Assembly (NCBI GenBank): GCA_965233585.1
Contig: CBDDTI010000058.1
Coordinates: 1-27,047, forward strand
Direction of reading: 5' to 3'
DNA from: a bacterium
Lineage (GTDB): Bacteria > SAR324 > NAC60-12
Length of the DNA stretch: 27,047 nucleotides
Of the stretch, positions 510 to 20,782 are shown piece after piece. The position numbers and the translations under genes were made by a program. The stretch's first letter is position 1, and every line of letters starts with the position of its first letter. The notes beneath the pieces are model-generated. The model was given only the letters and a program-made list of their open reading frames with translations, had not been told where the DNA came from and made no database searches.

Positions 510-1071
510 GATGACATCAGCGGCACATTAGGTGTTTTCGGCCCGATTTCATCTCGAATTTTAAAAATGTGACCTAAATTCATCTAAAAACATCCTGATG
601 CGACCTCGTTGCAAGCAAAATGGCAACTGATGTAACCTAAAACAACCTAAACGCGCCTAAATGCATCCTTCTTTCTTGTGCGTGCATTGCTTTGTCTAAT
701 GCACGCATTGGTTCATCTAATGCTGGCACAAAATTTTTTGTGCCTGCATTGTTTCATCTAATGCAAGCATTGCTTCATGTAATGCAGGCACAAAATTTTT
801 TGTGCCTGCATTGCTTTGTCTAATGCAGGCATTGCTTCATCTAATGCACGCACAAAATTTTTTGTGCGTGCATTAAAAAGTCTGGTGCCTGCATTGCTCT
901 GTCTAATGCTCGCATGAAAAAGTTTATGCTGGCATTAAATTTGTTACGCCTGCATCAAATTTTGTCATGCTGGCATTACTTTTCCTAATGCACGGACCTC
1001 AAATTTAACGCACGCGTAAAAAATTTAGATGTAGGCACTTGAATGTTAGTGGTCCATAGTCGAGTAAATGT
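510..1071 (+). repeat. Left terminal inverted repeat
   Basis: 510-694 is the exact reverse complement of 20598-20782 (185 bp). Similarity continues with substitutions and one indel to ~1071/~20285. Confidence 0.95.
679..1016. repeat. Subterminal phased array of TGCnnGCA palindromes (20-21 bp period, 62 bp higher-order unit)
   Basis: Motif starts at 679,700,721,741,762,783,803,824,845,865,886,907,927,947*,968,989*,1009* (* = degenerate). Confidence 0.9.
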
Positions 1072-1134
1072 GAGAAAAACAAAGTATTGCAAACAATATC
1101 AGGTTTAGTTTTTTATCATTTACCTTGTATTTTT

Positions 1135-2690: not shown

Positions 2691-3377
2691 TTACGTGCGC
2701 ACGTTGTACGCCCTTGTTGGCTGTTCGTCGGGGAAAATATGACTTCTTAATCGAACTGAATTATTTTGCTGCTGATGAAAATCAAGCAGTAAATAGCTAT
2801 AAGGTCTTTCGCTGGTTGCTGTCACATATGCTTCGTTTAGCAGATGCACGTTACCCGGAAACACCTGTTTAGCTAGGTTTGAGACGGCGCTACGGTCTCT
2901 CGGATTGTTGAATAAAATCATGTATTGTGAGTTGATGCTGAGCATTCTGAGCTCGCTTTTGGCGCTAAACATGTTCTGACACAAAAAAACTGTCAGACAA
3001 TTATAATGATGTGTTAAAACCGTGAAAAAGTGCTTTAGCACTGATCCTACTTCATCAAGAAAATCATCGAAAATCACAATCTTCGGAAGAGTTCTAGGAA
3101 ACATTTCCAGTATATCTTTCATGTCTTCAACTGATTCCGGCATGGATGAAAATTTGCAAAACCTTTTCTCTCGCGCGTCATTGTTCATCCACCGCTCCAT
3201 ATCAGCATAGGCGGGTTGAAATTCTTTGTAAAATAAAATCATACATTCCGGAACAGGCGAGCACATTATGCCTCTATTTTCAACCAGTTTTTTTAGCCAT
3301 GACGTTTTTCCGCAAGAGGTGGGGCCAACCGCGAGTAAGTTGGATGGAAGCTTAAAACGCAAATCAAAACCGTCCAT
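2691..3377 (-). CDS. A32-like (FtsK-HerA) genome-packaging ATPase
   Basis: Walker A GPTSCGKT, Walker B IVIFDD, plus LCQN and LRMLSINSQY motifs. First ATG is at 3377 (the ORF track starts at GTG 3395). Confidence 0.93.
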   Translation of the reverse strand: MDGFDLRFKLPSNLLAVGPTSCGKTSWLKKLVENRGIMCSPVPECMILFYKEFQPAYADMERWMNNDAREKRFCKFSSMPESVEDMKDILEMFPRTLPKIVIFDDFLDEVGSVLKHFFTVLTHHYNCLTVFLCQNMFSAKSELRMLSINSQYMILFNNPRDRSAVSNLAKQVFPGNVHLLNEAYVTATSERPYSYLLLDFHQQQNNSVRLRSHIFPDEQPTRAYNVRT

Positions 3378-3438
3378 GTTTTTGTTTTTTACCACAGAAA
3401 AAAGGACAAAATATTGTCATCAATTTTTAACAATATAT

Positions 3439-6400
3439 TTATTTGATTTTCTTACATTCATGTTTATGGCATTTTTTTATGTTACAACTTCCCAAGGCCA
3501 AAGTGCACTTTCCACAAGAAAGCACATAACGTTTGGTGTCCATGGCGGATAGAGCAATTTTTCGTTGGTAGGTTGTAGATATTCTGTGATTCTTTGATTT
3601 AATATTTACAAGTGGCTTATATACCATGGATGATTCGGTTAAGCATTTTTTATAATCGTCAAAAGTCAAGTGATTCTTAATACTAGTTTTTTTGAGGCCC
3701 TTACAAATTTTCTTCACGCTGGCTCCTCTGGTTTTCAAGTCTTTGACTGTCATGCTGTAACATTTCGGCCTCAAGCCAATAAATTCTGTGATTGCTGCTT
3801 TTCCTTTTAGCTCGTCTTTAAAGTAAAACAAATGGTTGGCTCTGCTATCGTCAAACAACTCATGATCTTTATCGTATTTAGAGAAGTCAAACATGTGTTC
3901 CATTTTTTTCAACTTTTCAACTAGATTTTGGCATTTTACTTGAAATAGAAACGAGTCTGTGTCTGAAAAGCATAGCTTTAGATTCTCCGTTCCAAAGTAA
4001 CGTCTAAATTTGTCGTATGATCGATACATGTAAAGTTTGGATAGTTCCAAAATTGCAAATCCTACCGCCAGAGGTTTCTTCATTTCAATCACGGCCGGTT
4101 TTTTCATGACAGCCACAAGGTTTTCGTTTATGACTTTTATATTTGAAACATGTTGACCAACGCAAGTCTGTCTTAGTTTCTTTTCATTGTGACACAACAC
4201 GACTTCGATGTAGTTTCGCGCGTTCTCTGCAAACAAAAAAATAATTGTTATTGTTAAAAAAATAGGGTCAATACTTTTTTACCTATAAATTTGCCGAACG
4301 TTGAATTGGCAAACAACTTGAAAAGACGTAATTCAAAATCAGTTTTCGCCTCTGACCTCAATTTTGTAATTTTTGTGATGAAGTTTTTCAAAAAGTCTTT
4401 TTGCTCAAACTTGACCGCTCGTCTGATTTTCGTAAGCTTCAGTCCTCGCCTCAAATAATACTTTAAATTATCTAACAAGACGACATATTTACGACGTGGG
4501 TAGAATGTGGCGAGAAGTTTTCGCGAGCTGTAACGTTTGTTTTTGTAATCTGATGGGCAGTGCTTCTTCAAAAGTTGTTTGTTAAACGGTGAAAGATCTT
4601 CATAGTTTATTGTGTCAGTGTAAGGGGCCAGAGGAAATTGATCATCTCTCTGCAAATAAAATATTTAATTTTTTTTCTAACCATAGGTGCTTTACAAAAA
4701 AAATTTTTTACCGTGTGATATTTTTCAGGATAGAGTAAATCCACTTCGAAAGCATAGCCGATCTTGCTTTGTGAAGGTAATTTTAAAATATCGGCATCTG
4801 TCCATGTTTTTATCTCCTTTTTTGACACCCACTTAAAATTACCTACCGGCAGCATGTGTGTCTCCATGCTGCCGTAAAGATTATTAGCTGAAATGTAATG
4901 TAATTTTAATCAATCTTTTTCAGTGCTTTATAAAAATATTACCATCTACATATAGTAAATGCTCGCCATTGACTTTTGGATCGGCCTGACCCATTGCATG
5001 TCTAGTGGCTATAAAACTTTGCCCCCCTCTAATGCCGCGTGTAAAAAACTGTTCCATTGCCGGATCGTGAAACAAGTCTAACGAGCCTGGTGGTTTTGAC
5101 ATTAAATCCGGTCTAATCTCTTCTTCATCTTTTCTTTCTTCATTCTGAAACATTTTAAGCATAATGTCGAAAGACAAGCCGGGTATGCCTAAATAGTAGA
5201 TTGGATCCAACTCGAAGTGTGACATCACCATTTCTCGATACTTTACAAAAATCTCGGCAAGCAAAATTACGTCCAGTCCGCAGTATAACTTCATGTAATC
5301 GTCCATATTTTTACAATTGAAGAACTTGAACACGTCAAAGCCGTGCTTATGATCTTCTGACGAGATGCCGACTTCGTTCAATCTTGAATAGAAAGCGTCT
5401 TTTTCCGGGAATTGACTGTTTTTAATCGAGTCATATGAAGAAAAGTATTCATACGGATACACTCCTTTTCTTTTCAATAATTTTAATCCTTTAGGCTTTT
5501 GTCGCGCCCACAACCTCTTGTAAGGCTCAAATTGTTTAAGAATAGGGAAGGTAAACGTCTCATCCTTGCACAAATCTGTCATGAGCGCTTCCAGACTAGA
5601 CGGCACGTGCTCTAGAGAATCTCTAATTTGAAATTTTCCAATAGTGATTGTCCGGAACTTTTCCTGGTTGCTTGCCATAAGATCCGACGCTCTATCCAGT
5701 TTTTCCACCAGTAGATTTATGTCATATCTAGAAATAAAAATTTATTTACTTGACTCTCACCAATCGAGATTTTTAAATTTCTACATCTGATACAAAAGAA
5801 CAATACTCACCCTTTCGCGTTGTGAAAGTATATAGGTGTTCTGAAAGGCCCCTGTCGTTGTAGATTGCAAATAGAATGTGCTGCTTGAAGAATGTTTCCG
5901 GTGACATGATCATGATCGACCACTTTTTTATATAATCGCGAGAACGGATCAAATTCTTTTTTGCAAATATGACAAAACGTAGCAGCGTGGTACTCTTTCC
6001 ATTCATTCTTGCTCGCTATAATTTGTGATGTGTTTCTGAAACGTTGCTTTCGAGCTTCCACTAGTTTTTCAAAATGATCCAGCTTTGATAAAAAATTTTC
6101 AACAGCGTCTTTTCCACTGTATGTCTCTTGATAAAATACTTCATTCTCCGAATCCACAAAACAAATTGAATAGCCGCAAGCCAGATGTTTGCTTAGTTCA
6201 ACAGAACCCGACACTTGACATCCGCATGTCACCCACACTTTTCCACATGTTTTACATTTTTCTGCTTCTTGCTCAGATTTTTCCATAAAACACTCAAAAT
6301 CAGCAAATCCTACCACTGGTGCTTTGAATGCATTTCTCTGTTTATCAAAATTCAAAACACTGCCTTTTTCAGGATAAATCACCTCTTGTTTATCTTTTTG

Positions 6401-7006
6401 ACAGATCTTCTCGTGTGCTTTTTGTTTCTTGAGCGAACGAAAATCCCTCAAACAGCTGTCACAAAAATAAAACTGACTTCTACTCCCTCTTTGTCCACCC
6501 CTTATGGATTTTCGGTTGTTCAGAAAGCCATTTAAATTAGTAATGGTGAAAAAGTGGTGCTGATGCTCAAGGTCTTTTAAGTTAGAAATACCATTTACGT
6601 CAATGCTGTCTTTATCGGCTGATGAAATTTGACAATCGCTTTTAATCATTAGCAGATTTAACGTATTTTTGTTCCTATTTTTCTCACCAGTTCTATTTGA
6701 GAAGATGTCTAGAACACTCAGTTGATATTCTCCTTCAAAAAGAACTCTTATACGCAGGGGTAGGTGCTTGTTTATTTGCACAAATTTGCTGATCTGGCTA
6801 AACTGTAGGGGAAAGGTCAGACCTTGCAAGTTAAATTTCTTTACATACTCTTTTGGAATTTTTTCGCAATGTCTGATGTTCGCCGTTTCCGGCCAAAGAT
6901 GCCCTATCACACAATATAGGAAATTTTTCTCATCATATTTTTTGTTCCATATAACACTTCGAGACTTTAATAAATACTCAGGCACGTTTACAGAGTCACT
7001 ATTCAT
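3439..7006 (-). CDS. polB: Protein-primed family B DNA polymerase, 5 exons (7006-5811, 5727-4943, 4887-4712, 4649-4283, 4226-3439), 1103 aa spliced
   Basis: ExoI FADFEC. Splicing restores ExoII FHNAKG|YD, motif A YVD|ANNLYG, YPEKYHT|RDDQFPLAP and motif B KLFANSTFGKFI|EN. Motif C SDTDSF and a later KCY motif are present. Exons sum to 3312 nt, in frame. Confidence 0.93.
4227..4282 (-). other. pPolB intron 4 (56 nt, GT-AG)
   Basis: ATAG|gtaaaa...tttgtttgcag|AGAAC joins FGKFI to ENARN. Confidence 0.88.
4650..4711 (-). other. pPolB intron 3 (62 nt, GT-AG)
   Basis: CACACG|gtaaaa...ttatttgcag|AGAGAT, phase 0. Confidence 0.85.
4888..4942 (-). other. pPolB intron 2 (55 nt, GT-AG)
   Basis: GATG|gtaata...catttcag|CTAATAAT restores the catalytic DANNLYG. 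Confidence 0.9.
5728..5810 (-). other. pPolB intron 1 (83 nt, GT-AG)
   Basis: AAAGG|gtgagt...ttatttctag|ATATGAC restores HNAKGYD. Confidence 0.92.
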
Positions 7007-7008
7007 TT

Positions 7009-7641
7009 TTAAAAAATGCTGCTACAGTCATAAATCAAAACACTGCAACTTTGGAGTCGAGCAAATCGCCAACCAGAGCCTCTAGTTAACAAATCGTCTT
7101 CCCTCTCTACTGATCCATTCAAAAGAGACTTTATCCTTTTACGAATTTGTCTATCACTTTGATATCTGTTAACTACAACGCCCTTCGACCTTAATGTGAA
7201 AGAATCGATGTCGATGCTTTTCCCCTGATTTTCTTCACTTAATCCGAGTATTTCGTAATCCGCTGTGATTGTTATACTTATCCGACAAACCACTCGATGA
7301 GTAAATTGACTTTTTAAAAGATTAAACACATTCTCGACCGTTTGCTTTGAGTTGCAAAAATCTTGCAAAGAGCTATTTAAATGCGACAGTTCTTGTTGAA
7401 AAATACAAACTTTGTTGCTGACAGCTCCTTGCCTTTTTGAAAATACTTTAGATTCCTCGTGATTTGAGTCAACGTGAAGCAATAACTCTTTTTTATCTTC
7501 ATATTTACTTTCGCAAAAAGGACACTTTTTTAAATCGCGGCCTCCCTGTTTTGAGTGATTTCCGTGTTTAAATTTTTGATGATAGGCAAGTCGACTTTTT
7601 CTGGAAAATGATATCTGGCACGTTTCACACTTGTGCGTCAT
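7009..7641 (-). CDS. Two C2H2 zinc fingers plus a GSGW-containing segment, likely the N-terminal part of pPolB
   Basis: Fingers CETC..HQKFKH and CPFC..HVDSNH. C-terminal RGSGWRF matches the GSGW motif of Polinton pPolB N-termini. The stop lies 2 nt before the pPolB ATG. Confidence 0.75.
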   Translation of the reverse strand: MTHKCETCQISFSRKSRLAYHQKFKHGNHSKQGGRDLKKCPFCESKYEDKKELLLHVDSNHEESKVFSKRQGAVSNKVCIFQQELSHLNSSLQDFCNSKQTVENVFNLLKSQFTHRVVCRISITITADYEILGLSEENQGKSIDIDSFTLRSKGVVVNRYQSDRQIRKRIKSLLNGSVEREDDLLTRGSGWRFARLQSCSVLIYDCSSIF

Positions 7642-7738
7642 TCTTTTTTCCCTGCTTTTGGACTTTTTTTCTGTAAAAATAAAAAAGTAAAAAATTGTTC
7701 AATCTTTAAATTTTATGTACAGAATTAATTTTTTATAT

Positions 7739-8584
7739 TTACAATAAATTATTGGCGCTTTCAACAATATCGCGCACTTCCGTTAAATTTTTTTTATACA
7801 AGTCCCGTATTGACGGGTTGGAAAAAAGAATTTCCCCCTGCGACTCGTAAAATACGAGCAGAGGGGAAACTTTACTAATAATAGTACGTAGTTTGTCTGA
7901 AAAAAAACGAAATTCAGGGTAAGGGCGGTTAACCCTCAGGTCGAGCCCTACACCCCCGTTTGACACCGAATTGAAATTTCTAATTGCTGCTCTTGACATT
8001 GCCACGCCCGGTAAACGTGTCACCCTTGCTCCTCGCGGTTCGGGGATTACGAGCCGCGGTGGAGCCGCAAAAAGTGGTGACGTCCTTGGTGCGGGACGGA
8101 TCGGTCTTAGTTGTGCCCGCAAAGACCTCGTGTCGCAAATAAATGGGGATTGTGCAACGGAAACAACAGCTGGAGATGGGGTTGATAGTCTTGATGGGGC
8201 CGGAGTTGGAGGACCCGGCAAGAACCCAACCTGCTGAAGCGGGGCAGGCAAAGAATAAATAGGAGATGGCACGGGTGAAGAAAGTGCTGAGGGTGTGTAA
8301 TACGCCGGTGTAAACGACGTATTAGGTGTTGAGGTCAAAAGAGGCTGAGTTTGAAGTGTCTCAGTCCTTATTGAAAAAAATGAGGAAGAAAGTGAGACAG
8401 GCGGAGAGGATGAAGGCAGGGCAATTGTAGAGGAGGCAGATGGTTGCGTTCCATCATCAACACTCGTTATGGGCGTAAGAAGCTCGACCGAGGCCCGATC
8501 CGTAGGTGTTTTTCTTCCTAGCCTTAATTTTAAAGCCGCACACCTTTTCATGCTGACCAATTTTGTCTCCTTGTCTTTCGGCAT
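7739..8584 (-). CDS. Hypothetical Pro/Ser-rich protein with a helical-looking C-terminus
   Basis: 281-aa ATG ORF, more GC-rich than its AT-rich flanks. No recognisable family. Confidence 0.65.
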   Translation of the reverse strand: MPKDKETKLVSMKRCAALKLRLGRKTPTDRASVELLTPITSVDDGTQPSASSTIALPSSSPPVSLSSSFFSIRTETLQTQPLLTSTPNTSFTPAYYTPSALSSPVPSPIYSLPAPLQQVGFLPGPPTPAPSRLSTPSPAVVSVAQSPFICDTRSLRAQLRPIRPAPRTSPLFAAPPRLVIPEPRGARVTRLPGVAMSRAAIRNFNSVSNGGVGLDLRVNRPYPEFRFFSDKLRTIISKVSPLLVFYESQGEILFSNPSIRDLYKKNLTEVRDIVESANNLL

Positions 8585-8948
8585 TGTCTAGAAAGCAAGG
8601 TGTTTGAAATGTGGTAAAAATTTTTTGCGCAAGCTCTTTTCTAGATTTAAAAAAATTTAAAAGACTTAAATAAACTCGAGATTAAAATATTTTCAAAAAA
8701 ATTTTATGTTTTAATTTTTGTAAACTTTTTTGTCTACTTACGATTTTTTAGAAGTTTTTTTTTAAAAGATAAAACCAGATCTTTTCTGTTCCAGTCTTGA
8801 TTTTTGAATGACTCCTTTTCCAAAAAAGGGTCAAACATGAAAACTTTTAAATTATAAAAAAGGCGCAAAAATTAAACTCAATTTTTGAAAGATCATTAAT
8901 TTTTTAGGAAAAAATTTGGTCCTCTCTTGTAAATCCTTTTATCCGCGG

Positions 8949-9662: not shown

Positions 9663-10890
<1,228 letters not shown>

Positions 10891-11013: not shown

Positions 11014-11499
11014 CTAATAAAGCTCCGTTTGCAAACGATTAACTAAATGCTTGACACGGTTTTCATTTTCGCGTAAATTATTTAGATTAAAAAAAGTACG
11101 AAAGTATTGAGGCTTCGCGTTTGCGCATGCATTGACAAACATGCAAAATGCTGCAGCATACCACCCGCAAAATAAAGAATCGAAAGCTTGAATTGGGCGG
11201 TCTAGAACGTGTCTTATCCTGCCGCAATTTACCCATTTTGTTAAAAAATTGATGAGGTGGTGATTATAGGTAGGCACGGGTAGTGCATAGCTGTCAAAAT
11301 AATACAAATAGTTTTGCTTATTGATGAAAAAGGCGATGAAATGACTGCCAGGATGGGTTGAAACTGAAAGATTGATGATGGCGCAACAACAAGTGTTCCA
11401 CAAGTCGGTGGGTATCGTGTCCACAGCGAACGTGCCAATGAAATTCCGACAAAGAGGTGATAAAAACCGATCCAGAAATAAGTTGCTTAATCCGGCCAT
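11014..11499 (-). CDS. Adenain-like cysteine maturation protease
   Basis: Catalytic His (PGSHFIA), Asp (YFDSY), and oxyanion Gln plus Cys (IQAFDSLFCGWY). Confidence 0.93.
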   Translation of the reverse strand: MAGLSNLFLDRFLSPLCRNFIGTFAVDTIPTDLWNTCCCAIINLSVSTHPGSHFIAFFINKQNYLYYFDSYALPVPTYNHHLINFLTKWVNCGRIRHVLDRPIQAFDSLFCGWYAAAFCMFVNACANAKPQYFRTFFNLNNLRENENRVKHLVNRLQTELY

Positions 11500-12833
11500 T
11501 ATCGTTCTTCGGCTCTAATAACTTGACCGTTCTCCTCTATTTTTATTCCGGAATTGAAAATGCTATAAGCCAGCAGGTAGATGGGGTGTGACTGCGCTGT
11601 TTTAAAGCCTAATTCCAAGTCCAACTTGCCTTTTTCGTCAGGGTGGATGTGAAAACTGTTGCAACGATCGGGGGTCAAATCAGCAGTTAGAAAACATCTT
11701 CCTTTCTTAAAAACCCCCGGCGAAATGTCGCATGAACTATTTGAAATGCCGAAACCCGTGCTGTCGTACATGTGTCTGTACAGGTCCATGTAGTTATCAT
11801 CATCAAAATCAGGCTGAAAAGCTTTTGGGAAAACGCATTGTCCGTTTTTAATAAGATTGAAATAATTTAGATCAAAGTGTTGAAAGTTGAACGGATTGAA
11901 CTTGTTGTCGTGCGTCAAAGCCTGGTTGTGAATTAGGGTAAAAATAACTTGTTTGGGCAAAATTTGTGAGGCAATATTTGTGATGGTGTACGATGTCACT
12001 CCAGCCGGAATCACATAAATTTTTAACTGACTTAGCTTAAAGGGTAGATAGCAGGGTTGTTGAGACATTTTCATCCTAAAATTTTTTCTCTGCTGCTCAA
12101 TTGGTAAAACTTTTCTCATTTTTAACTTTAAATCTTTCAAAACGATTTTAAAAGATTTGTCATCCTCAGCGTGAAGAATACCAAAAGCTGGATTGTTTCT
12201 AATGAGCTTAATCTTGATGTCAACATTCGGTGGCATATACTTATCTGTATACATAATATCCGCCCCCAATCGAGAGCAAAAATAGACTTTTTTGCCGTTA
12301 AGTATAATATTTCGACGCTGCATTAAACGCTGATTTATGCCAGGCTCGCTGGCACCGATATCATTTTCTTTCTCTTCAAAATAACCTTCGGCTCTTAGCT
12401 GACTCTGCTTGGTCTCTCTATCAAACGACAATTCAGTTTGAATAAAGTTTTTGAAAGGGTAGGAATTAGCCGTGCTCAGGTCACAGACTTGAGTACCATT
12501 AATGTAGATTTCAACCGCACTAAATAGATTGCTCGCAAAATTATTGACTAGAAAGACGCGGTCGTCAGGTCCGACATTTTCATCCTTCGTTGTCTTGACA
12601 ACAAAATGTCCTATTAATCTGGTCTGATCCAAGATGATGGAACACTCTTCGTCTCGCGGAATAATAAATTCGATCGGTCCGGAGTTTGACACGCTGGAAA
12701 CGCTGTTGTAGACTACATCGTTGCCTTTTTCAAGGCTTATATCGACCCCGAGCGGGGCGTGCAGATCGAGAGCTTGTTCAGTTAAATCATCTTGCTCAAA
12801 GCCGAGACCGGCAATGCCACCCCTTTCAGTCAT
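11499..12833 (-). CDS. Major capsid protein 1 (double jelly-roll, PY-like)
   Basis: 444 aa with GPIEFII, LFSAVEIYING, KYMPPNVDIKIKL, NPFNFQHF and ADLTPD motifs typical of Polinton MCPs. Confidence 0.9.
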   Translation of the reverse strand: MTERGGIAGLGFEQDDLTEQALDLHAPLGVDISLEKGNDVVYNSVSSVSNSGPIEFIIPRDEECSIILDQTRLIGHFVVKTTKDENVGPDDRVFLVNNFASNLFSAVEIYINGTQVCDLSTANSYPFKNFIQTELSFDRETKQSQLRAEGYFEEKENDIGASEPGINQRLMQRRNIILNGKKVYFCSRLGADIMYTDKYMPPNVDIKIKLIRNNPAFGILHAEDDKSFKIVLKDLKLKMRKVLPIEQQRKNFRMKMSQQPCYLPFKLSQLKIYVIPAGVTSYTITNIASQILPKQVIFTLIHNQALTHDNKFNPFNFQHFDLNYFNLIKNGQCVFPKAFQPDFDDDNYMDLYRHMYDSTGFGISNSSCDISPGVFKKGRCFLTADLTPDRCNSFHIHPDEKGKLDLELGFKTAQSHPIYLLAYSIFNSGIKIEENGQVIRAEER

Positions 12834-12902
12834 TGTCGGAAATGTGTGCCAGACCGTAGTTTTCTGCTTTTCTTAAAAAGAGGTCAAGTCAATAACAGGT
12901 TT

Positions 12903-14249
12903 TTAATATTTCACTTTGGTAACTTGAAGGTTGTTGTCGATGGAAATGGCGGCATTATATGTGGCGTAGGAAATCAAAGTATATGGTTGATCGAGAGGCG
13001 AGTTGAAAGTCAAGTCTAATTCTAAATTTCCAGGTACTCCAACGTGATTATGAAAAGATAGGCATTTATCAGGGGTCAAGTCAAACGCAAGAAACATCTG
13101 GCCATTAACAAAAGCGTCAGGTGTAATACGATTCCTACCACCAACGTTACTTTGAAAATGGTCATATAATTCCATATAATCCCCGCTCGGCAAGTGACAT
13201 TCTAGAAGACGAGGCAAGAGGGGTCTCCCATTGTTTTTTAAAATTACTGATGATAACTCGACATGATTAAAGTAAAAGGGAAATCCGTCGTTTGAGCCTT
13301 TTGCAAATAAATCGCTTTTTACTACGCAAAAAATAATTTGTTGCGGCAACAACTCGCTATTGTTGATGTGATTTGCAGAGAAACAGCGGGAACCTGCAGG
13401 CATTAGATAATGCTTCATCTGTGTGTCTTTGTAGGGTAGAAAAAAAGGCTGTCCTTTTTGCAGTTTAGCATTTAGCTTATTTCGCACGCGCTCGTGCGGC
13501 AGCACTTTTCTCATGCGGAGTTTTAATTCTTTCAAACGAATGCGAAAGGTTTTGTTTGGATTATTTTGAATCACACCAAAACATGTGTTAAACCTGCGCA
13601 ATACGATAGTGATTTCAACGTTTGGAGGTAGATATTTGTCAGTGTGAAAAATATCAACAGGCAAAGTCGAGCTAAAATAAACTTTTTTGCCATTCATTAT
13701 TCTCTGTCGATTCTCCGCGACACATTGGCACATATACATTTTACCAGACGCGTCAACCCTGTCATAACATTTGCCGTGGTGCGTTCGACAAAAGCCTTCG
13801 GTCCGCCCAACATTTGCTTTAACATTATTATCGTAGGACAAGAGAAAATCTATGTGATGCTTGTATGTATAAGAAAGAGGAGAACTTAAATCTGCGATTT
13901 GAGTGCCGTTAAGGTGGACTTCAATTTGTGAGAATAGAGCAGTGCAATAATGGTTAGTAATGGTTGTCGTATCAGTTGGTCCTACACCTTCGTCGCTGTC
14001 AGTCTTTACTACAAAGTGTCCCTCTAGCCTTGTCTGATTTAAAACAAAAGCACATTCCGGGTCGGAAGGAATTGAAAACGTGACATCTTCTAAATCTTCG
14101 ACAGGAGTCACGCTACTATATAACACAGTACGACCGGATATTAAATCTTTGTCCTCATAGGGAGTTGCATGCGCATTTAAACTATCACCCTGCAATTCAT
14201 CGAAATCCACAGTTAATCCACCGACACCACCATTAATCAACGATGACAT
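12903..14249 (-). CDS. Major capsid protein 2 (paralog)
   Basis: 448 aa, colinear with MCP1: LFSQIEVHLNG, DKYLPPNVEITIVL, PFYFNH, AFDLTPDKC. Confidence 0.9.
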   Translation of the reverse strand: MSSLINGGVGGLTVDFDELQGDSLNAHATPYEDKDLISGRTVLYSSVTPVEDLEDVTFSIPSDPECAFVLNQTRLEGHFVVKTDSDEGVGPTDTTTITNHYCTALFSQIEVHLNGTQIADLSSPLSYTYKHHIDFLLSYDNNVKANVGRTEGFCRTHHGKCYDRVDASGKMYMCQCVAENRQRIMNGKKVYFSSTLPVDIFHTDKYLPPNVEITIVLRRFNTCFGVIQNNPNKTFRIRLKELKLRMRKVLPHERVRNKLNAKLQKGQPFFLPYKDTQMKHYLMPAGSRCFSANHINNSELLPQQIIFCVVKSDLFAKGSNDGFPFYFNHVELSSVILKNNGRPLLPRLLECHLPSGDYMELYDHFQSNVGGRNRITPDAFVNGQMFLAFDLTPDKCLSFHNHVGVPGNLELDLTFNSPLDQPYTLISYATYNAAISIDNNLQVTKVKY

Positions 14250-14806
14250 TTCTAGACAACAAGAGACACGTTACTGTGACAAATATAAAGTTTAGTTGCA
14301 CAATTATTCTTATTGATGAGGGGCCGTTATCCTTACATAAAGATGTACCGCGAAAAGTTTTTAGTAATTTTACGGTAGTGAGAAAACAATACGTCTACAC
14401 TATTTTCAAGACTCGAAAAAACGACAAATCATATCATGTCAATATTACCAAAGTGCCTTCACGAGCAGATGTAAAAATTTCGCTAAGTCTGCTAACGGAC
14501 ATTATCAGCAATCGTTTTTATGTGAAATCGTGGGAAATAAACAATTTAACTTGTTCTTTCCGCACCAACTTTGAGATACCGCTGCCAGACGTTTTTGATA
14601 AACTTAAAAAGGAAAATTGCGTAAAAAAAATACGCTTTAATCCGGAACGTTTTCCGGGCATGTTTGTGACATTCAAAGCCAACACGGTTTTGATTTTTTC
14701 AACTGGCAAGATGGTAATAATCGGGGCCAAGACCGAAGATGCCGCCAATCATAGTTTGGATTTAATTATGAAATTTTTAAATCAATATAAGAACGAGCAA
14801 ATGTAG
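14243..14806 (+). CDS. TBP: TATA-box-binding protein-like factor
   Basis: The second half INNLTCS...FNPERFPG...TVLIFSTGKMVIIGAKT matches the TBP repeat. The first half VTNIKFS...FSNFTVVR..VYTIF..HVNIT is a degenerate first repeat. Confidence 0.88.
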   Translation: MTFLDNKRHVTVTNIKFSCTIILIDEGPLSLHKDVPRKVFSNFTVVRKQYVYTIFKTRKNDKSYHVNITKVPSRADVKISLSLLTDIISNRFYVKSWEINNLTCSFRTNFEIPLPDVFDKLKKENCVKKIRFNPERFPGMFVTFKANTVLIFSTGKMVIIGAKTEDAANHSLDLIMKFLNQYKNEQM

Positions 14807-14821
14807 ACTCGCGTTTCAGTT
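14786..14821 (+). promoter_or_regulatory. Candidate TATA plus initiator for the TFIIB-like gene
   Basis: TATAAG at 14786 and arthropod-type Inr TCAGTT (A at 14818), a -32 spacing, 29 nt before the ATG. Confidence 0.55.
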
Positions 14822-14846
14822 TTGCATTGCATGTGAAGAAATAAAC

Positions 14847-15545
14847 ATGGCTTGTTTTGTTAATTTCAACAAAACCTGTTCTCATTACAATATTGTAGAT
14901 GATTTTTCAAATGGGTGTGAAGTATGTACAGATTGCGGACTCGTGATGCATGATCAAATTTATGCTCCGTACGACAATCGGCTAGAGTCGTTCAATGTGG
15001 CTTGTGACAAAAACAATTTTTATGACGAGACAATGCAGAGGGTTTGCTATAAGTGCAACATCGAATGCTCAGATTTAAAACGCTCCATCTTTAAAAAATG
15101 GAACGCTAGTGGGAAAAAAAGGAAAAAAGGAGTTTGTTTAGAAAGTTTGGCGATAATGTGCATCTACACCGCGCTAATAGAGTCAGAGGTACCGCGGCCA
15201 ATGAAAGATTTATGTCTCATAACAGGCGTCAAGCAGGACAAAGTGTGGCAATATCTCAAAAATGATGACTCTTTCTACAGCCCCAATTTAATGTGTGAAT
15301 ATTTTCTACATTCATTAAATCTAGGCTACAAGGAGATAAAGGAAATTAGAGAGAAAGTAAAGCAACACGAAAAAAAGTTTGTTTTTTCTCCAAAAACACT
15401 AATTGCTGCATGCGCGTATGTCTTTTTAAGAGAAAAACGAAGTAGGATTGATTGTGAAAAACCTAAAAGCCTATCGCATCTAGCTAGGCAATTAGGAGTT
15501 AGTCCGATGGCCTTGAGCAGGTGCGTCAAAAAAATTGAAAACTGA
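14847..15545 (+). CDS. TFIIB: Transcription initiation factor TFIIB-like protein
   Basis: N-terminal Zn ribbon CSH..DFSNGCEVCTDCGLV. Cyclin repeat 1 LAIMCIY..EVPRPMKDL and cyclin repeat 2 SPKTLIAACAY...LARQLGVSPMAL. Confidence 0.88.
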   Translation: MACFVNFNKTCSHYNIVDDFSNGCEVCTDCGLVMHDQIYAPYDNRLESFNVACDKNNFYDETMQRVCYKCNIECSDLKRSIFKKWNASGKKRKKGVCLESLAIMCIYTALIESEVPRPMKDLCLITGVKQDKVWQYLKNDDSFYSPNLMCEYFLHSLNLGYKEIKEIREKVKQHEKKFVFSPKTLIAACAYVFLREKRSRIDCEKPKSLSHLARQLGVSPMALSRCVKKIEN

Positions 15546-15551
15546 TAAAGC

Positions 15552-15986
15552 ATGCGATTCCACCGTGGTCCGTCCATACAAGTGGGGGCGGGATTAGGTT
15601 CAATTTTTAGCAGTCTTTTCCGGTCGTTGGTTCCGGTGGCTAAGGGTGCCGCAAAGACAATCGGTAAAATTGCAAAAAACGGGGGTGTGCGTTCAGCGGG
15701 TCGATATTTAAAAAAAGAGGTGGGACGTGCAGCCATTGACTCCGCACTGGAAGCCTTGGACGGTAAGGCAGTTGGGGCCGCTGCAAAAAAGAGATTAAAA
15801 TCCGCAACTAGAAACATTCTACTGGCGGGTAAGGCAAGTAGGTCTGCACGAGCGCCCAAGAGACCGCTTAAGAGAAAAAATAGCACGCACGCAGTAGGAA
15901 GCAGCAAGAGAAGAAAAACAAAACAAAAACCGTTGTTTTATGTTGACGACACAGACGACGACTACGACATCGAAGATGATTACTAA
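15552..15986 (+). CDS. Small basic virion core or membrane-active protein
   Basis: QVGAG followed by the amphipathic LGSIFSSLFRSLVPVAK, a K/R-rich body and an acidic tail; a pattern common in Polintons. Confidence 0.75.
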   Translation: MRFHRGPSIQVGAGLGSIFSSLFRSLVPVAKGAAKTIGKIAKNGGVRSAGRYLKKEVGRAAIDSALEALDGKAVGAAAKKRLKSATRNILLAGKASRSARAPKRPLKRKNSTHAVGSSKRRKTKQKPLFYVDDTDDDYDIEDDY

Positions 15987-17055
15987 ACACGAATTTCTAA
16001 AGGCCTACACTTCGCCCGGCTCACCTTTTGCCTTTTCATCTGCAAACCGCGTTTTTAATCATTTTAATGGGTCCATACCAATAAATAAAATAAAGAAATG
16101 GCTGCAGGCATCAGACACCTATACTCTGCATCGGCAACCTAGAGCCCCAAAACCGAGGAACCCAACTTATGTTTATTACAAAAGATATCAATTCCAAATA
16201 GACTTGATCGAAATTGGAAAAATGGCGAAAGCAAATGACAATTATCGTTACCTGCTGACAGCGATCGACATTTTTTCAAGGTACGCCTTTGTTGAGCCTT
16301 TAAAAGACAAGACAGCTTTGGTTTTTTTAAAAGGATTTAAAACCATTATAAAAAAAGCCGGACAGCTACCGCGAAAAATACTGGCTGACAGAGGGTTAGA
16401 GATAAAAAATAAATTTTTCAAAGACTACTGTCGTCGTAATGGGATTACTCTTTTACACAGCGACAACTTTTTGCACGCGCCGTTTGTAGAAAGATTTAAC
16501 AGATCGCTAAAAAGTCTGATGTTTAAATATATGACATCCAGAGGCACAGACCGATTTATCCACGTGCTACAATCTTTAGTAAAGACATATAATTCGCGTG
16601 TGCATAGAATGATTGGCATGAGTCCGGCCGAAGCGGAAAAAGCAAAAAACGCATCAAAAGTCAGGACAAAACAAGAAGAGGTTTATGGAAAAATACAGAG
16701 GCGACCGCCTAAATTTAAGAAAGGTCAGACGGTCAGAATAAGTAAATATAGAGCACAATTCGACCGAGGTTACGATAAACAATTTACGGAAGAAATTTTT
16801 AAAATCAGGCGGGTGTTTACTCGTTTACCCATTCCTACATACGAGTTAGAAACTTTAGATGGTGACGAGTTAATAGAGGGGAATTTTTATGCTAATGAGC
16901 TGACTCTTGTTAAGCCACCAAAAGTATTTGACATTGAAAAAATAGTGAAAAGGAAGAAGGATAAAAGAACCGGGCAGAAGCTAGTGTTGGTGAAGTGGAA
17001 AGGCTATAAAAACCTTAGCTGGATTGCTGAAGATAGCATTATTGATCGGGCGTAA
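15976..17055 (+). CDS. int: Retroviral-like DDE integrase with a C-terminal chromodomain-like region
   Basis: FQIDL (D), LADRGLE (D), VERFNRSLK (E). C-terminus FDIEKIV...LVKWKGY..SWI. Likely ATG is 15976; an upstream in-frame ATG lies at 15940. Confidence 0.95.
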   Translation: MITKHEFLKAYTSPGSPFAFSSANRVFNHFNGSIPINKIKKWLQASDTYTLHRQPRAPKPRNPTYVYYKRYQFQIDLIEIGKMAKANDNYRYLLTAIDIFSRYAFVEPLKDKTALVFLKGFKTIIKKAGQLPRKILADRGLEIKNKFFKDYCRRNGITLLHSDNFLHAPFVERFNRSLKSLMFKYMTSRGTDRFIHVLQSLVKTYNSRVHRMIGMSPAEAEKAKNASKVRTKQEEVYGKIQRRPPKFKKGQTVRISKYRAQFDRGYDKQFTEEIFKIRRVFTRLPIPTYELETLDGDELIEGNFYANELTLVKPPKVFDIEKIVKRKKDKRTGQKLVLVKWKGYKNLSWIAEDSIIDRA

Positions 17056-17060
17056 CAACT

Positions 17061-18653
17061 ATGAAAGGAGGTCATCTTATTTATTGCATCTCGAATGCAA
17101 GCACCGATTGTTTCGAGAACACACTAACGCGTTTCAACAATGTATTACCTCAAAATTTGGAATTAGATGATAGGAGAGATTGGGAAGTAGGGGTTGTAGC
17201 TTTTGGTCTGCATTTAAATGTGAAAGAAGATTTTGTTTTTGACGTGATCCAGGTTAAATCCGACATTGTGTCGACAAGTCCAAACGAGAATTCTCGCATC
17301 TTATGCGTAGCCGATTTACCTTCGAACAAAAAACAGAAATATTTTTACCATAGTTTAAAAAACATACGATATTATCCTATTCAAATCACCTCAATAAAAA
17401 CAGTGGGCATCGAGTTTCTAGACGCGTCCGACAAACTTTTAAAACTAAAAACAGGACAGCCGAGTTTAGTTTTACTTCACTTGCGAAAAACAAAACGTGC
17501 AATGTCTTATTCGACTAAACATATTCGCGTCGACTCAAAAATGAACGACGACATAAAACCTGCGCAGAAAAACAACAATTTTGAGGTACATTTGAGCCAC
17601 CCGATTGATTTGAATGCAGGCGCTAAAATAGCTTTAGCCGACATCTCCTTTCCAAATCGGATTGATAGCATTCCGTTAAGTGTTTTTGATAAGAAAATCA
17701 AAGTAAGTACAGACCCGTTTGAGCAAGAAATCGAGGTCGAACTTGGGCAGCAAAAAACATTTGCTTACTTATTACGTCGCCTAAACGAGGGAAGAGACAA
17801 CGTAGTATGTAATTTTGTCGAATTTGATCAAGTGGGGAAAACAAAAGAATCGACAGACATGTTTTTCCGAGCGATTTACACAGGGCCAACGACGTGCGAT
17901 GATGAATTTAAATTGCATGAGGTAAAAGTGCAAATACCGCCAGAATTTAAAAACATTTTGGGAATCAAGGAAGAATTTATAGTCATTGGACCCGAAAGAA
18001 AAAAATTTATATCACAACAGCCTATGCGGAATCCAGACCCGACAGAATCAATCCCACCCGTTAAAATCAAGGTAGCAATCGAATCAATGCAATTTTGCTT
18101 TTCGATTGAGAAGAAAACTATCAAAACAACGAATGAATTAATTGAGGCCATGTATAATACTATGAGTGAAGATTTGCAAGGACTTATTCGAATTTCCGCG
18201 CATGAAAACCGTTTCAAAGTAGAGCGGAGCGGCAATCAGTACAAACGCTCCTTGGTAGTAAGGTTAAAAGTACCACATGAAATAAGATTATTGCTAGGAA
18301 TAAGACAAAACGAGGATATTGTTTTGACGGATGGAAGCGGACAATTCATAAGTCACGATCGACTTGATCCGCACTATCTATATCCCGGAGTGATGATCTG
18401 CTATGCCAATTTTGTCAATCACTCTGTAATTGGAGACGAGTTTTACCCGGTATTAAAGGTTATACCATTAAATAGAGGCGAGGAAGAAGACAATTATGTG
18501 ACAACACATTTCGATAATTTAGAATACGTAAAGTGTAATACAAGCCGTCTGGATTTATTGCACTTTCAGTTAAAAAGACTTGACGGAGAATCGATTAGTT
18601 TTGAAACCAATGAAAAAATCATGATGAATTTAGCCATTCAAAACCCGAAATAA
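17061..18653 (+). CDS. Minor capsid (penton) protein with two tandem jelly-roll-like domains
   Basis: Domain 1 (aa ~1-145): SNAS..NT...F...LP..LEL...WEVGV...LLHLRK. Domain 2 (from M148): FEVHL..PIDL...IALADISFP...VIGD...PVLKVIP...LDGESISF. Confidence 0.82.
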   Translation: MKGGHLIYCISNASTDCFENTLTRFNNVLPQNLELDDRRDWEVGVVAFGLHLNVKEDFVFDVIQVKSDIVSTSPNENSRILCVADLPSNKKQKYFYHSLKNIRYYPIQITSIKTVGIEFLDASDKLLKLKTGQPSLVLLHLRKTKRAMSYSTKHIRVDSKMNDDIKPAQKNNNFEVHLSHPIDLNAGAKIALADISFPNRIDSIPLSVFDKKIKVSTDPFEQEIEVELGQQKTFAYLLRRLNEGRDNVVCNFVEFDQVGKTKESTDMFFRAIYTGPTTCDDEFKLHEVKVQIPPEFKNILGIKEEFIVIGPERKKFISQQPMRNPDPTESIPPVKIKVAIESMQFCFSIEKKTIKTTNELIEAMYNTMSEDLQGLIRISAHENRFKVERSGNQYKRSLVVRLKVPHEIRLLLGIRQNEDIVLTDGSGQFISHDRLDPHYLYPGVMICYANFVNHSVIGDEFYPVLKVIPLNRGEEEDNYVTTHFDNLEYVKCNTSRLDLLHFQLKRLDGESISFETNEKIMMNLAIQNPK

Positions 18654-18974: not shown

Positions 18975-19627
18975 TCTTGTATTTCGAATTCTAGAGAGGC
19001 GGCCGCGGAGTATTTGGAGCGGTCGTAATTCTGCGGATTAACATAAACCCCATCTTCTAACATGCCTGTAATTTCCTTCTTTGATTTTCTCACTTGCCTT
19101 GTCATTAGTCGAAATTTCTCAATTGATCTCTCCAATAACTTTTCTTCTTTGTGAGCATCTTCTCGAGCCATATCAATTGGAAAACTCATTTTGAGTTTTT
19201 CAAGCTCGAAAACAAGATAAGTCACATTAGCCATCAAATTTTCTAAAACGCTCTTAACGTGGTAAGACTTTTGGTGCGTCAACGGAGACCAATAATTACT
19301 ATTTGGCACAATGTAGGACATTGAGTTTTGTGGTTCCATTTTTGGTTGATCTTCATCCTCAATCCAAGCATCTGTGGGCTGAGTTTCGGGGAACGGGGGG
19401 ATGATTGATTTATAGTCATTCAAATCGCTCATTTCAGTTGGCTGAGTTTCCGGGAACGGGGGGATGATTGGTTTATAACCATTCAAATCGCTCATTCCAG
19501 CCTCAATGTTTAAGTTGGTCGACTGATTATCGTTTTTCATCCAGGTATTGCTGAACTGGGTTTCCGGGTATTGTGGAATGATTGATTTATAACCAGCCAT
19601 GTCTCTAATTCCAGTTTCGTCAGTCAT
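18971..19627 (-). CDS. Hypothetical protein with three YKxIIPxxPETQ repeats and a helical C-terminus
   Basis: 218-aa ORF. 63-bp tandem units start at 19377 and 19440, with a third copy near 19557-19610. A TATA box lies upstream. Confidence 0.7.
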   Translation of the reverse strand: MTDETGIRDMAGYKSIIPQYPETQFSNTWMKNDNQSTNLNIEAGMSDLNGYKPIIPPFPETQPTEMSDLNDYKSIIPPFPETQPTDAWIEDEDQPKMEPQNSMSYIVPNSNYWSPLTHQKSYHVKSVLENLMANVTYLVFELEKLKMSFPIDMAREDAHKEEKLLERSIEKFRLMTRQVRKSKKEITGMLEDGVYVNPQNYDRSKYSAAASLEFEIQE

Positions 19628-19692: not shown

Positions 19693-20284
19693 CTTTATTG
19701 CCAAAGAAATTTCTAGAAAAGACTAGAAAATGGAAAAGACTGGAAAAAATCGTGGTCAGTTTAAAAAATTCATTTAGGAAAAAAATTAAAAATTGCATGA
19801 CAAAATACCGACAAACCTAATTGTGTTATTAATGATGTGAATTTTCTGGGAAATGGGGCTTTCTCTGGAATGGGGTAAAATTCGGAAAAGAGAAGAAGAA
19901 CAAAAGAAAGACATCTGCTTTGCACAAAAACTATCTAGAAAACTCCAGAAAAAATCGCGGTCAGTTCAAAAATTTTTTTGTAGAATTGTAATTGCATGAC
20001 AAAATATCAAGGAACCAAACAGTTTTGCAAAAAAAAAAATCAAATGTTTCAACGACTTGTGTGCAAAATTAAAAAACACAATTGAATAAATTAAGGATAA
20101 AAACGATTTGTGCATAAAAACAAAAAAAAAAAAAAACACGATGGAATAAATTAATGATTAAAAATTACTTGGTGATTGAAAACATTACAGCAATAAAAAT
20201 TACTAAAGTCTTTTAAAATTTTTAATTAATAAGAACATTGCAACATTGACTATAACTAAAGAGAAAAACTTTGCTCTTTTTATT

Positions 20285-20782
20285 ACATTTACTCGAGTAT
20301 GAACCGCTAACATTCTAATGCCCTGATCTAAATTTTTACGCGTGCGATAAATTTGAGGTCCGTGCATCAGGAAAAGTAATGCAGGCATGACAAAATTTGA
20401 TGCTGGCGTAACAAATTTAATGCCAGCATAAACTTTTTCATGCTGGCATTAAACGAAGCAATGCAGGCACCAGACTTTTTACGCACGCACAAAAAATTTT
20501 GTGGCTGCATTACATAAAGCAATGCCTGCATTAGATGAGACAATGCAGGCACAAAAAATTTTGTGCCAGCATTAGATGAACCAATGCGTGCATTGGGCAA
20601 AGCAATGCACGCACAAGAAAGAAGGATGCATTTAGGCGCGTTTAGGTTGTTTTAGGTTACATCAGTTGCCATTTTGCTTGCAACGAGGTCGCATCAGGAT
20701 GTTTTTAGATGAATTTAGGTCACATTTTTAAAATTCGAGATGAAATCGGGCCGAAAACACCTAATGTGCCGCTGATGTCATC
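20285..20782 (-). repeat. Right terminal inverted repeat
   Basis: Reverse complement of 510-1071, lacking about one 62-bp array unit. Confidence 0.95.

Follow-up and report, generated by a model that had tools for sequence, protein, structure and literature searches.

Introduction

Does a polymerase gene that falls apart into five open reading frames (ORFs) belong to a dead mobile element, or is it a working gene whose frame is divided by introns? The question is raised by the protein-primed family B DNA polymerase (pPolB) gene of an apparent Polinton/Maverick-type element in contig C58 (CBDDTI010000058.1) of assembly GCA_965233585.1. The whole of this contig, 27,047 nucleotides (nt) in length, is referred to here as the window; the assembly comprises 12.0 Mb in 747 contigs. 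A reading made from the letters of the window and a list of its ORFs, with no database search (the sequence-only reading), had described the gene as interrupted by four short spliceosomal introns.

In the literature that we found, the core genes of Polintons/Mavericks are described or assumed to be intronless, and the founding papers (2006, 2007) and Repbase may mention introns. In the texts that we found, intact elements encode conserved, intronless ORFs (Barreat and Katzourakis 2021; PMC8097293), introns are placed in cargo only and the other genes are called "all of these intronless genes" (Widen et al. 2022, preprint; 10.1101/2022.07.12.499685), and the use of a prokaryotic gene caller is justified by the statement that endogenous viruses "do not contain introns" (Bellas et al. 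2023; PMC10120064). Intron-free core genes are also assumed in the accessible text of PMC9356565. The word "intron" does not occur in the available portion of PMC4028283, and that of PMC8502044 mentions only group II intron maturases.

Structure of the pPolB Gene

Reading of the minus strand through positions 3400-7100 resolved the pPolB gene, 7006-3439, into five exons separated by four GT-AG introns (Table 1). Joining of the exons gave 1103 codons (398 + 1 + 261 + 1 + 58 + 122 + 1 + 261). This was an exact match to the sequence-only reading, which had proposed introns of 83, 55, 62 and 56 nt, a frame of 1103 amino acids and junctions at 5811/5727, 4943/4887, 4712/4649 and 4283/4226. The five stop-to-stop ORF pieces of the minus strand (5807-7021, 4920-5741, 4607-4909, 4254-4664 and 3439-4278) lie in different frames. 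None of the four intron lengths is divisible by three, and retention of any one intron would bring the frame to a stop 0 to 35 codons past the end of the exon, as judged from the ends of the ORFs. The GC content of the four introns is 0.19-0.27, and each has a pyrimidine tract ahead of the AG.

The introns lie within or next to conserved motifs, at the places named in the sequence-only reading (ExoII, motif A, the YP..H..PLAP segment and just after motif B). The residue contexts are HNAK(G)|YD in ExoII, LYVD(A)|NNLYGS in motif A, YPEKYHT|RDDQFPLAP, and NSTFGKFI(E)|NARNY after motif B, the residue of a split codon being given in brackets. The motif names are conventional labels, not computed assignments. 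All the polymerase and exonuclease motifs are intact in the translations of the ORF pieces (ADFEC, HNAK(G)YD, YCGLD, YVD(A)NNLYGS, KLFANSTFGK, FSDTDSF and KCY), and they align with their equivalents in an intronless metagenome relative, locus L020.

Exon 2 and exon 4, each searched alone, matched Pfam DNA_pol_B_2 (PF03175; cut-off 25.8 bits) with E 5e-07 (29.4 bits) and E 4.7e-06 (26.2 bits), respectively, and no Pfam match was obtained for exon 3 or exon 5 searched singly. Exon 5 had 6390 database relatives at E<=0.001, many of them being the C-terminus of proteins of 1050-1430 amino acids. A sequence search of the PDB with exon 2 and exon 5 gave no match. Exon 1, which is collinear with intronless relatives, contains the N-terminal region, ExoI, an HNH/endonuclease VII-like insert and the first half of ExoII. 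The insert matched PHROG 423, endonuclease VII (E 3.9e-05), and Pfam PF02945 (E 0.0016, 18.7 bits, under the cut-off of 23.6 bits); PF02945 is also present in two database relatives, P0023 and P0029.

Table 1. Positions of the parts of the pPolB gene and of other features of the element in the window.
Feature	Position	Strand	Description
pPolB exon 1	5811..7006	-	398 codons + 2 nt (1196 nt); ATG 7006-7004
HNH/endonuclease VII-like segment	5843..5983	-	within exon 1, residues 342-388, between ExoI and ExoII
Intron 1	5728..5810	-	83 nt, phase 2, GTGAGT...TTTCTAG, in ExoII
pPolB exon 2	4943..5727	-	785 nt; second half of ExoII, ExoIII, first half of motif A
Intron 2	4888..4942	-	55 nt, phase 1, GTAATA...TTTCAG, in motif A
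pPolB exon 3	4712..4887	-	176 nt
Intron 3	4650..4711	-	62 nt, phase 0, GTAAAA...TTGCAG
pPolB exon 4	4283..4649	-	367 nt, motif B at its end
Intron 4	4227..4282	-	56 nt, phase 1, GTAAAA...TTGCAG, just past motif B
pPolB exon 5	3439..4226	-	788 nt including stop 3441-3439; motif C (FSDTDSF), KCY, C-terminal part
P-loop ATPase-like ORF, candidate packaging ATPase	2691..3416	-	directly downstream of pPolB; GPTSCGKT P-loop in translation
C2H2 zinc-finger ORF	7009..7698	-	weak zf-C2H2 matches; C-terminal RGSGWRF; stops 2 nt before the pPolB ATG (TAA-AA-ATG)
rve-type integrase, chromodomain-like C-terminus	15898..17055	+	Pfam rve E 1.3e-10, 41.9 bits (cut-off 32.6)
Left terminal inverted repeat	510..1079		arms 510-809 / 20483-20782 98% complementary (300 nt), further arms to 1079
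Right terminal inverted repeat	20277..20782		partner arms reach 20277

Conservation and Selection among Close Copies

Nine further copies of the gene, 87.6-88.4% identical in nucleotides to that of the window, are present in the assembly. The exon lengths (1196, 785, 176, 367 and 788 nt) are constant in every copy that covers them (eight full copies for exon 1, 9/9 for exon 2), and the lengths of introns 1 to 4 vary among the copies (74-88, 55-77, 61-67 and 55-57 nt, respectively). The nucleotide identity among copies is 61-84% in introns versus 85-93% in exons. GT and AG are retained in 36/36 intron copies, and no internal stop was found in the spliced frame of any of the nine. When five whole elements were aligned, each of the 11 indel events of the region 3439-7004 fell within the 256 nt of the introns.

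Substitutions among the close copies were distributed over codon positions 1, 2 and 3 as about 60:44:237. The ratio of nonsynonymous to synonymous divergence (dN/dS; Nei-Gojobori), calculated for the window copy against the others, was 0.08-0.09 at a dS of 0.49-0.51. The introns differed by Jukes-Cantor distances of 0.18-0.52, which is of the same order as the dS of about 0.5. This pattern indicates that the pPolB gene of the window is under purifying selection and is not a pseudogene, in agreement with the sequence-only reading, which had considered its fragmented look to be misleading. The flanks of the nine copies are mutually unrelated and the copies are therefore separate insertions; in addition, some copy pairs differ by a dS of merely 0.003-0.05, from which it follows that intron-bearing elements spread recently.

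Distant Copies and Intronless Relatives

The five exon translations were compared with the assembly by tblastn and the matches were chained into loci, which resulted in 55 pPolB loci, each covered over 300 or more residues. They comprise 10 loci of the window family, 33 of other families (43-70% amino acid identity) and 12 of a remote lineage (below 40%). An intron was counted as present when an insert of at least 40 nt was found at the site, among the loci covering that site (Table 2). The sequence-only reading had proposed the intron positions in related Polintons as a check, and introns 1, 2 and 4 proved to be shared by all covered loci of the intron-bearing clade, at the identical codon in all 33 more distant copies wherever the site was covered.

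Table 2. Loci with an intron at each site of the window gene, among those covering the site.
Site	Window family	Other families	Intron-bearing loci together	Remote lineage
Intron 1	10/10	33/33	43/43	0/4
Intron 2	10/10	31/31	41/41	0/2
Intron 3	10/10	29/31	39/41	0/2
Intron 4	10/10	29/29	39/39	0/5

GT was found at the predicted bases of sites 1 to 4 in 43/50, 41/41, 39/44 and 41/41 rows, and AG in 44/48, 41/44, 39/44 and 42/48 rows. The exceptions are exactly the rows that have no intron, and every row with an insert keeps both dinucleotides. Intron 3 is missing, with 0 extra nt, in C98 and in the minus-strand locus of C212. An extra intron near residue 579 is present in other families (28 loci, in which exon 2 aligned in two pieces) and absent from the window family, and the C98 family has one more near residue 192. 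Intron 4 is enlarged to 941-2322 nt in 25 loci, copies of a sister family. At the intron-4 equivalent of locus L013 (3158-5419 in C96) there is an antisense ORF of 398 residues with a low-complexity repeat (GAWSSS... units), possible explanations being a nested gene, a satellite or an insertion in the polymerase intron.

As judged from these alignments, the introns are old, introns 1, 2 and 4 being common to every copy, where covered, in a clade that numbers 43 loci or more in the assembly. By the same comparison, intron 3 appears to have been lost in one family, and other families hold one or two further introns.

The remote loci of the assembly have zero extra nt at the four sites where these are covered. 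Nine distant loci were obtained from a metagenome search with alignment A2; alignment A1, made with exon 4, found no relatives in metagenome contigs or genome contigs, and viral contigs searched with exon 5 contained none. Locus L020 (33-43% identity) has no interruption at any of the four sites, its sequence across them being HNFT-G-YD, LYYD-A-NNLYG, YPENLHK-KHREFPLAP and GKTI-E-NPRKH. Its residues at the split codons, G, A and E, are those predicted by the splice model of the window gene. Loci L021, L022, L023 and L027 likewise have zero extra nt at the sites that they cover. Two of the nine distant metagenome relatives show apparent spliceosomal introns of their own, at polymerase positions other than those of the window: in L026 (about 564-621) motif C is split by a 56-nt GT...AG intron (TDT|DS), and in L019 (about 700-741) an acceptor stands right before GNANYGK, the NxYGK of motif B, with non-coding sequence upstream.

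Among the 150 best of the 6390 exon 5 relatives, the intron-4 site was read through in 52/52 short proteins with at least 10 upstream residues. This count gives no bound on intron frequency, because such proteins come mostly from ORF callers that are unable to bridge introns.

A quick maximum-likelihood tree of exon 5 (52 assembly rows and 17 external proteins, no bootstrap) placed all 42 intron-bearing rows in one group with a Shimodaira-Hasegawa-like approximate likelihood ratio test (SH-aLRT) value of 87. This group sits within a starred clade (95) that also contains the database proteins P0002 and P0034, and well away from it stand those lineages of the assembly that lack introns. Both database proteins are continuous across the intron-4 site. 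At the intron-3 site, P0002 has an in-frame insert of 24 residues that begins with V and ends with FFIILQ, as translation through an unremoved GT...pyrimidine-CAG intron would give.

The Element around the Gene

The pPolB gene lies in an element of about 20 kb between terminal inverted repeats (TIRs), whose other copies align from about position 500. End-to-end alignment of elements at 82-84% identity was obtained in at least six contigs with unrelated flanks. The C-terminus of the rve-type integrase gave a Chromo match under the cut-off (E 1.1e-4). For the ORF at 2691-3416 the Pfam ATPase matches were weak and all under their cut-offs, and 13 other ORFs of the element had no match in PHROGs.

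The zinc-finger ORF is conserved and stands directly upstream of pPolB in all the other intron-bearing families examined (C426, C98, C212, C593, C608, C96, C77 and C106), with spacers of 2-115 nt, and it had no match in the contigs of intronless lineages. Splicing of this ORF onto pPolB was considered and rejected: the ORF has its own stop in 7/7 copies from five families, and no GT-AG pair is conserved across the spacer. Acceptor-like sites, as spliced-leader trans-splicing of a polycistronic transcript would use, precede some ATGs in the window family, and C96 and C77 lack the one ahead of pPolB. Between the ORF at 7739-8587 and the zinc-finger ORF there are a donor-like GTAAAT at 7742 and an acceptor-like TTTTTACAG ending at 7671; the frames are left unjoined by them and the pair was discarded as a coding intron. 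Likewise, no GT-AG solution restoring a frame was visible in the indel clusters at 10688-10742 and 19449-19517.

Outside pPolB, the long ORFs run on without a break and no intron was confirmed. Neighbouring minus-strand ORFs overlap by stop and start codons (ATGA near 2346, TAATG near 11500), an arrangement conserved in five copies, and the indels at 14237-18651 are all in-frame. The rest of the element is compact and virus-style, and the multi-intron polymerase gene stands out within it.

The plus-strand ORF at 14237-14806 is TBP-like (Pfam TBP, E 4.2e-16, one repeat), and the ORF that comes after it on the same strand (14781-15545) has a weak match to the TFIIB zinc ribbon. By tblastn, 35 contigs were seen to contain homologues of these TBP-like and TFIIB-like ORFs (29-84% identity), among them contigs of other intron-bearing Polinton families such as C98, C30 and C593. 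We know of no Polinton recorded with transcription initiation factor genes of its own.

The flanks of the element contain retroelement domains of BEL/Pao type (DUF1759, DUF1758, a gag-type aspartyl protease and a CCHC knuckle), which we take to be typical of animals. The window is eukaryotic, animal-type repeat DNA. Although its listed completeness is 92% and its listed contamination 2%, the assembly holds at least 55 Polinton polymerase loci together with pieces of animal-type retroelements; much of the 12 Mb may consist of host repeat DNA that was co-binned.

Explanations of the Split Reading Frame

Four things are direct observations: how the gene is built, how it is conserved, that its spliced frame is under purifying selection, and that its junctions are collinear with relatives lacking introns. 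The explanation that we favour, with a probability of roughly 0.88, is that the polymerase gene of a Polinton, kept under selection, carries genuine and functional spliceosomal introns; from the DNA we infer that the transcript is actually spliced and gives an active polymerase. The element would be a Polinton/Maverick of about 20 kb integrated in animal-type DNA and copied as DNA, so that the introns would be inherited along with it and travel with it. The polymerase would be made only once the gene had been transcribed in the nucleus and the host spliceosome had removed all four introns, presumably of U2 type. Splicing is most likely constitutive, which is the most economical assumption because all the sites have a strong consensus and there is no conserved internal intron sequence.

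Because any retained intron truncates the protein, production of the polymerase, and hence self-replication, would depend on the host spliceosome. To this extent the sequence-only reading stands; its further suggestion of gating by tissue or stage is not supported, the sites being strong and the introns short and ordinary. A regulated gate, in which one or more introns are removed only in certain cells or stages and thereby restrict polymerase and replication, is accordingly judged distinctly improbable. The third intron (IVS3) of the Drosophila P element works in this way, and the truncation just mentioned would serve such a gate here. Retention of intron 1 would leave an N-terminal product of 399 residues with ExoI and the HNH-like segment, and introns are present in pPolB while none interrupts the remaining long ORFs. 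The donors, however, are all GTAAxx or GTGAGT and the acceptors are pyrimidine-rich with CAG or TAG, unlike weak regulated sites. Moreover, the introns diverge at about the synonymous rate (0.18-0.52 against 0.5), and therefore no conserved intronic regulatory element is visible.

A dead pseudogene in fragments, with GT...AG pairs that happen by chance to restore its frame, is hardly credible. Five ORF pieces in different frames do resemble a decayed gene, but a dN/dS of 0.08 over the joined frame, the absence of stops and the confinement of indels to the introns do not, the same sites are used down to 43% identity, and the junctions are seamless against intronless relatives. The different flanks of the copies also argue against assembly artefacts of a single locus. 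A family of domesticated host polymerase genes with ordinary introns, instead of a mobile element, would account for the multi-intron structure, which is typical of host genes, and for the single group formed by the intron-bearing pPolBs in the exon-5 tree. This is very improbable, since the gene lies within TIR-bounded elements of about 20 kb that align end to end between unrelated flanks, that carry an rve integrase and of which some copies are nearly identical. Just as remote as the pseudogene is removal or bypass other than by the spliceosome, whether through self-splicing introns, introner-type transposons or translational bypass. Introner insertions are reported for dinoflagellate Maverick-Polinton-like elements in the available text of PMC11957031. 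Here, however, the four introns are mutually unlike, and they have no copies in the 12-Mb assembly outside homologous Polinton sites: searched by blastn-short against this assembly, a fragment of the host genome, they matched only their homologues in sister Polintons and, over 22 nt, one sequence at chance level. With 55-83 nt, they fall far below the size of group I or group II introns, and they have canonical GT-AG ends and pyrimidine tracts.

Several points weigh against genuine introns in a Polinton gene. The contig is binned in an assembly labelled as a SAR324 bacterium. Neither capsid nor protease genes were identified with Pfam or PHROGs among the long ORFs of the element, those at 1135-2346, 11499-12872, 12903-14270 and 17046-18653 being left without an assignment, and a 6-bp target-site duplication was not found, the candidate flanks AATATG and TATTAT being different, the termini uncertain and the right flank a TAA microsatellite. 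The ATG of pPolB lies 2 nt behind the stop of the upstream ORF. The contigs of four sequencing runs (X1, X2, X3 and X5) are DNA-like and span the introns, and no RNA run is listed; the only joints in these contigs, 4663>4800 and 7007>7062, are not at introns. Finally, the nine close copies represent few sublineages, so that 9/9 does not amount to nine independent tests.

A more far-reaching proposal, to which we give a small chance, is that the introns are adaptive, this clade having made its replicase a host-style multi-intron gene and kept the rest of the element compact. The introns might then mark the polymerase transcript as "self", favouring its nuclear export and its escape from surveillance by which intronless foreign genes are silenced, or they might time the polymerase. 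They might also act jointly with the TBP-like and TFIIB-like factors of the clade.

Implications and Comparison with Known Systems

Under the intron-free rule, a copy is called intact only when its ORFs are uninterrupted (PMC8097293, PMC10120064 and PMC9356565, in their accessible text). At least 43 polymerase loci of this small assembly would score as decayed by that rule. The warning of the sequence-only reading that annotation by ORFs alone would miscall the element is thus borne out, surveys requiring intronless ORFs as described in the available text of PMC8097293 and PMC10120064. The blind spot may exceed one family, as introns were seen in two of the nine distant metagenome relatives. 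The result counters a working assumption of the field and has a practical bearing on annotation; mechanistically it is not unexpected for a nuclear DNA element. It also suggests that a virus-like element can need the host spliceosome to make its replicase and persist in this way through long spans of evolution, and shared, lost and gained introns provide discrete characters for tracing Polinton lineages.

The element resembles the Polintons/Mavericks of animals (adintovirus-like; vertebrates, nematodes) in its size of about 20 kb, its TIRs, pPolB, rve integrase and P-loop ATPase-like ORF and its many insertion sites. It differs from the described ones in that the polymerase gene has four introns (four to six in sister families) and that the clade carries TBP-like and TFIIB-like ORFs.

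The extra HNH-type segment of the window pPolB recalls pPolB2 of nematode and oomycete Polintons, which is described with an HNH or VSR nuclease insert (Jeong et al. 2023; PMC10748475, available part), a likeness from which no group is assigned. Introns appear in the accessible text of that paper (PMC10748475) as group I introns only, with no mention of spliceosomal ones. Spliceosomal-type introns within integrated Polinton-like elements are known from the introner-bearing proviruses of dinoflagellates, Maverick-Polinton-like elements whose introners were mostly acquired post-integration (Gozashti et al. 2025; PMC11957031, as far as its available text goes). Unlike those multicopy introners, in the part of the account available, the introns of the window are single-copy, mutually unlike and fixed at the same codons clade-wide, and the spliced frame is under selection.

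Among cut-and-paste elements, Ginger1 has transposase genes with one to four GT-AG introns according to the accessible text of Bao, Kapitonov and Jurka (2010; PMC2836005). As in Ginger1, so far as that text describes it, a DNA-copied element here keeps GT-AG introns, such elements retaining them because no RNA intermediate removes them. The P element is likewise a DNA transposon with introns in its transposase gene. Unlike the single-gene Ginger1 (within the available description) and the P element, the split gene in the present case encodes the polymerase that replicates a virus-like element with multiple genes. The adenoviruses are nuclear DNA viruses with a protein-primed family B polymerase, and their E2B mRNAs for the polymerase and the terminal protein precursor are produced through host splicing. 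The coding body of the adenovirus polymerase is approximately one exon joined to short leaders, whereas the four introns of the Polinton gene described here cut through catalytic motifs.

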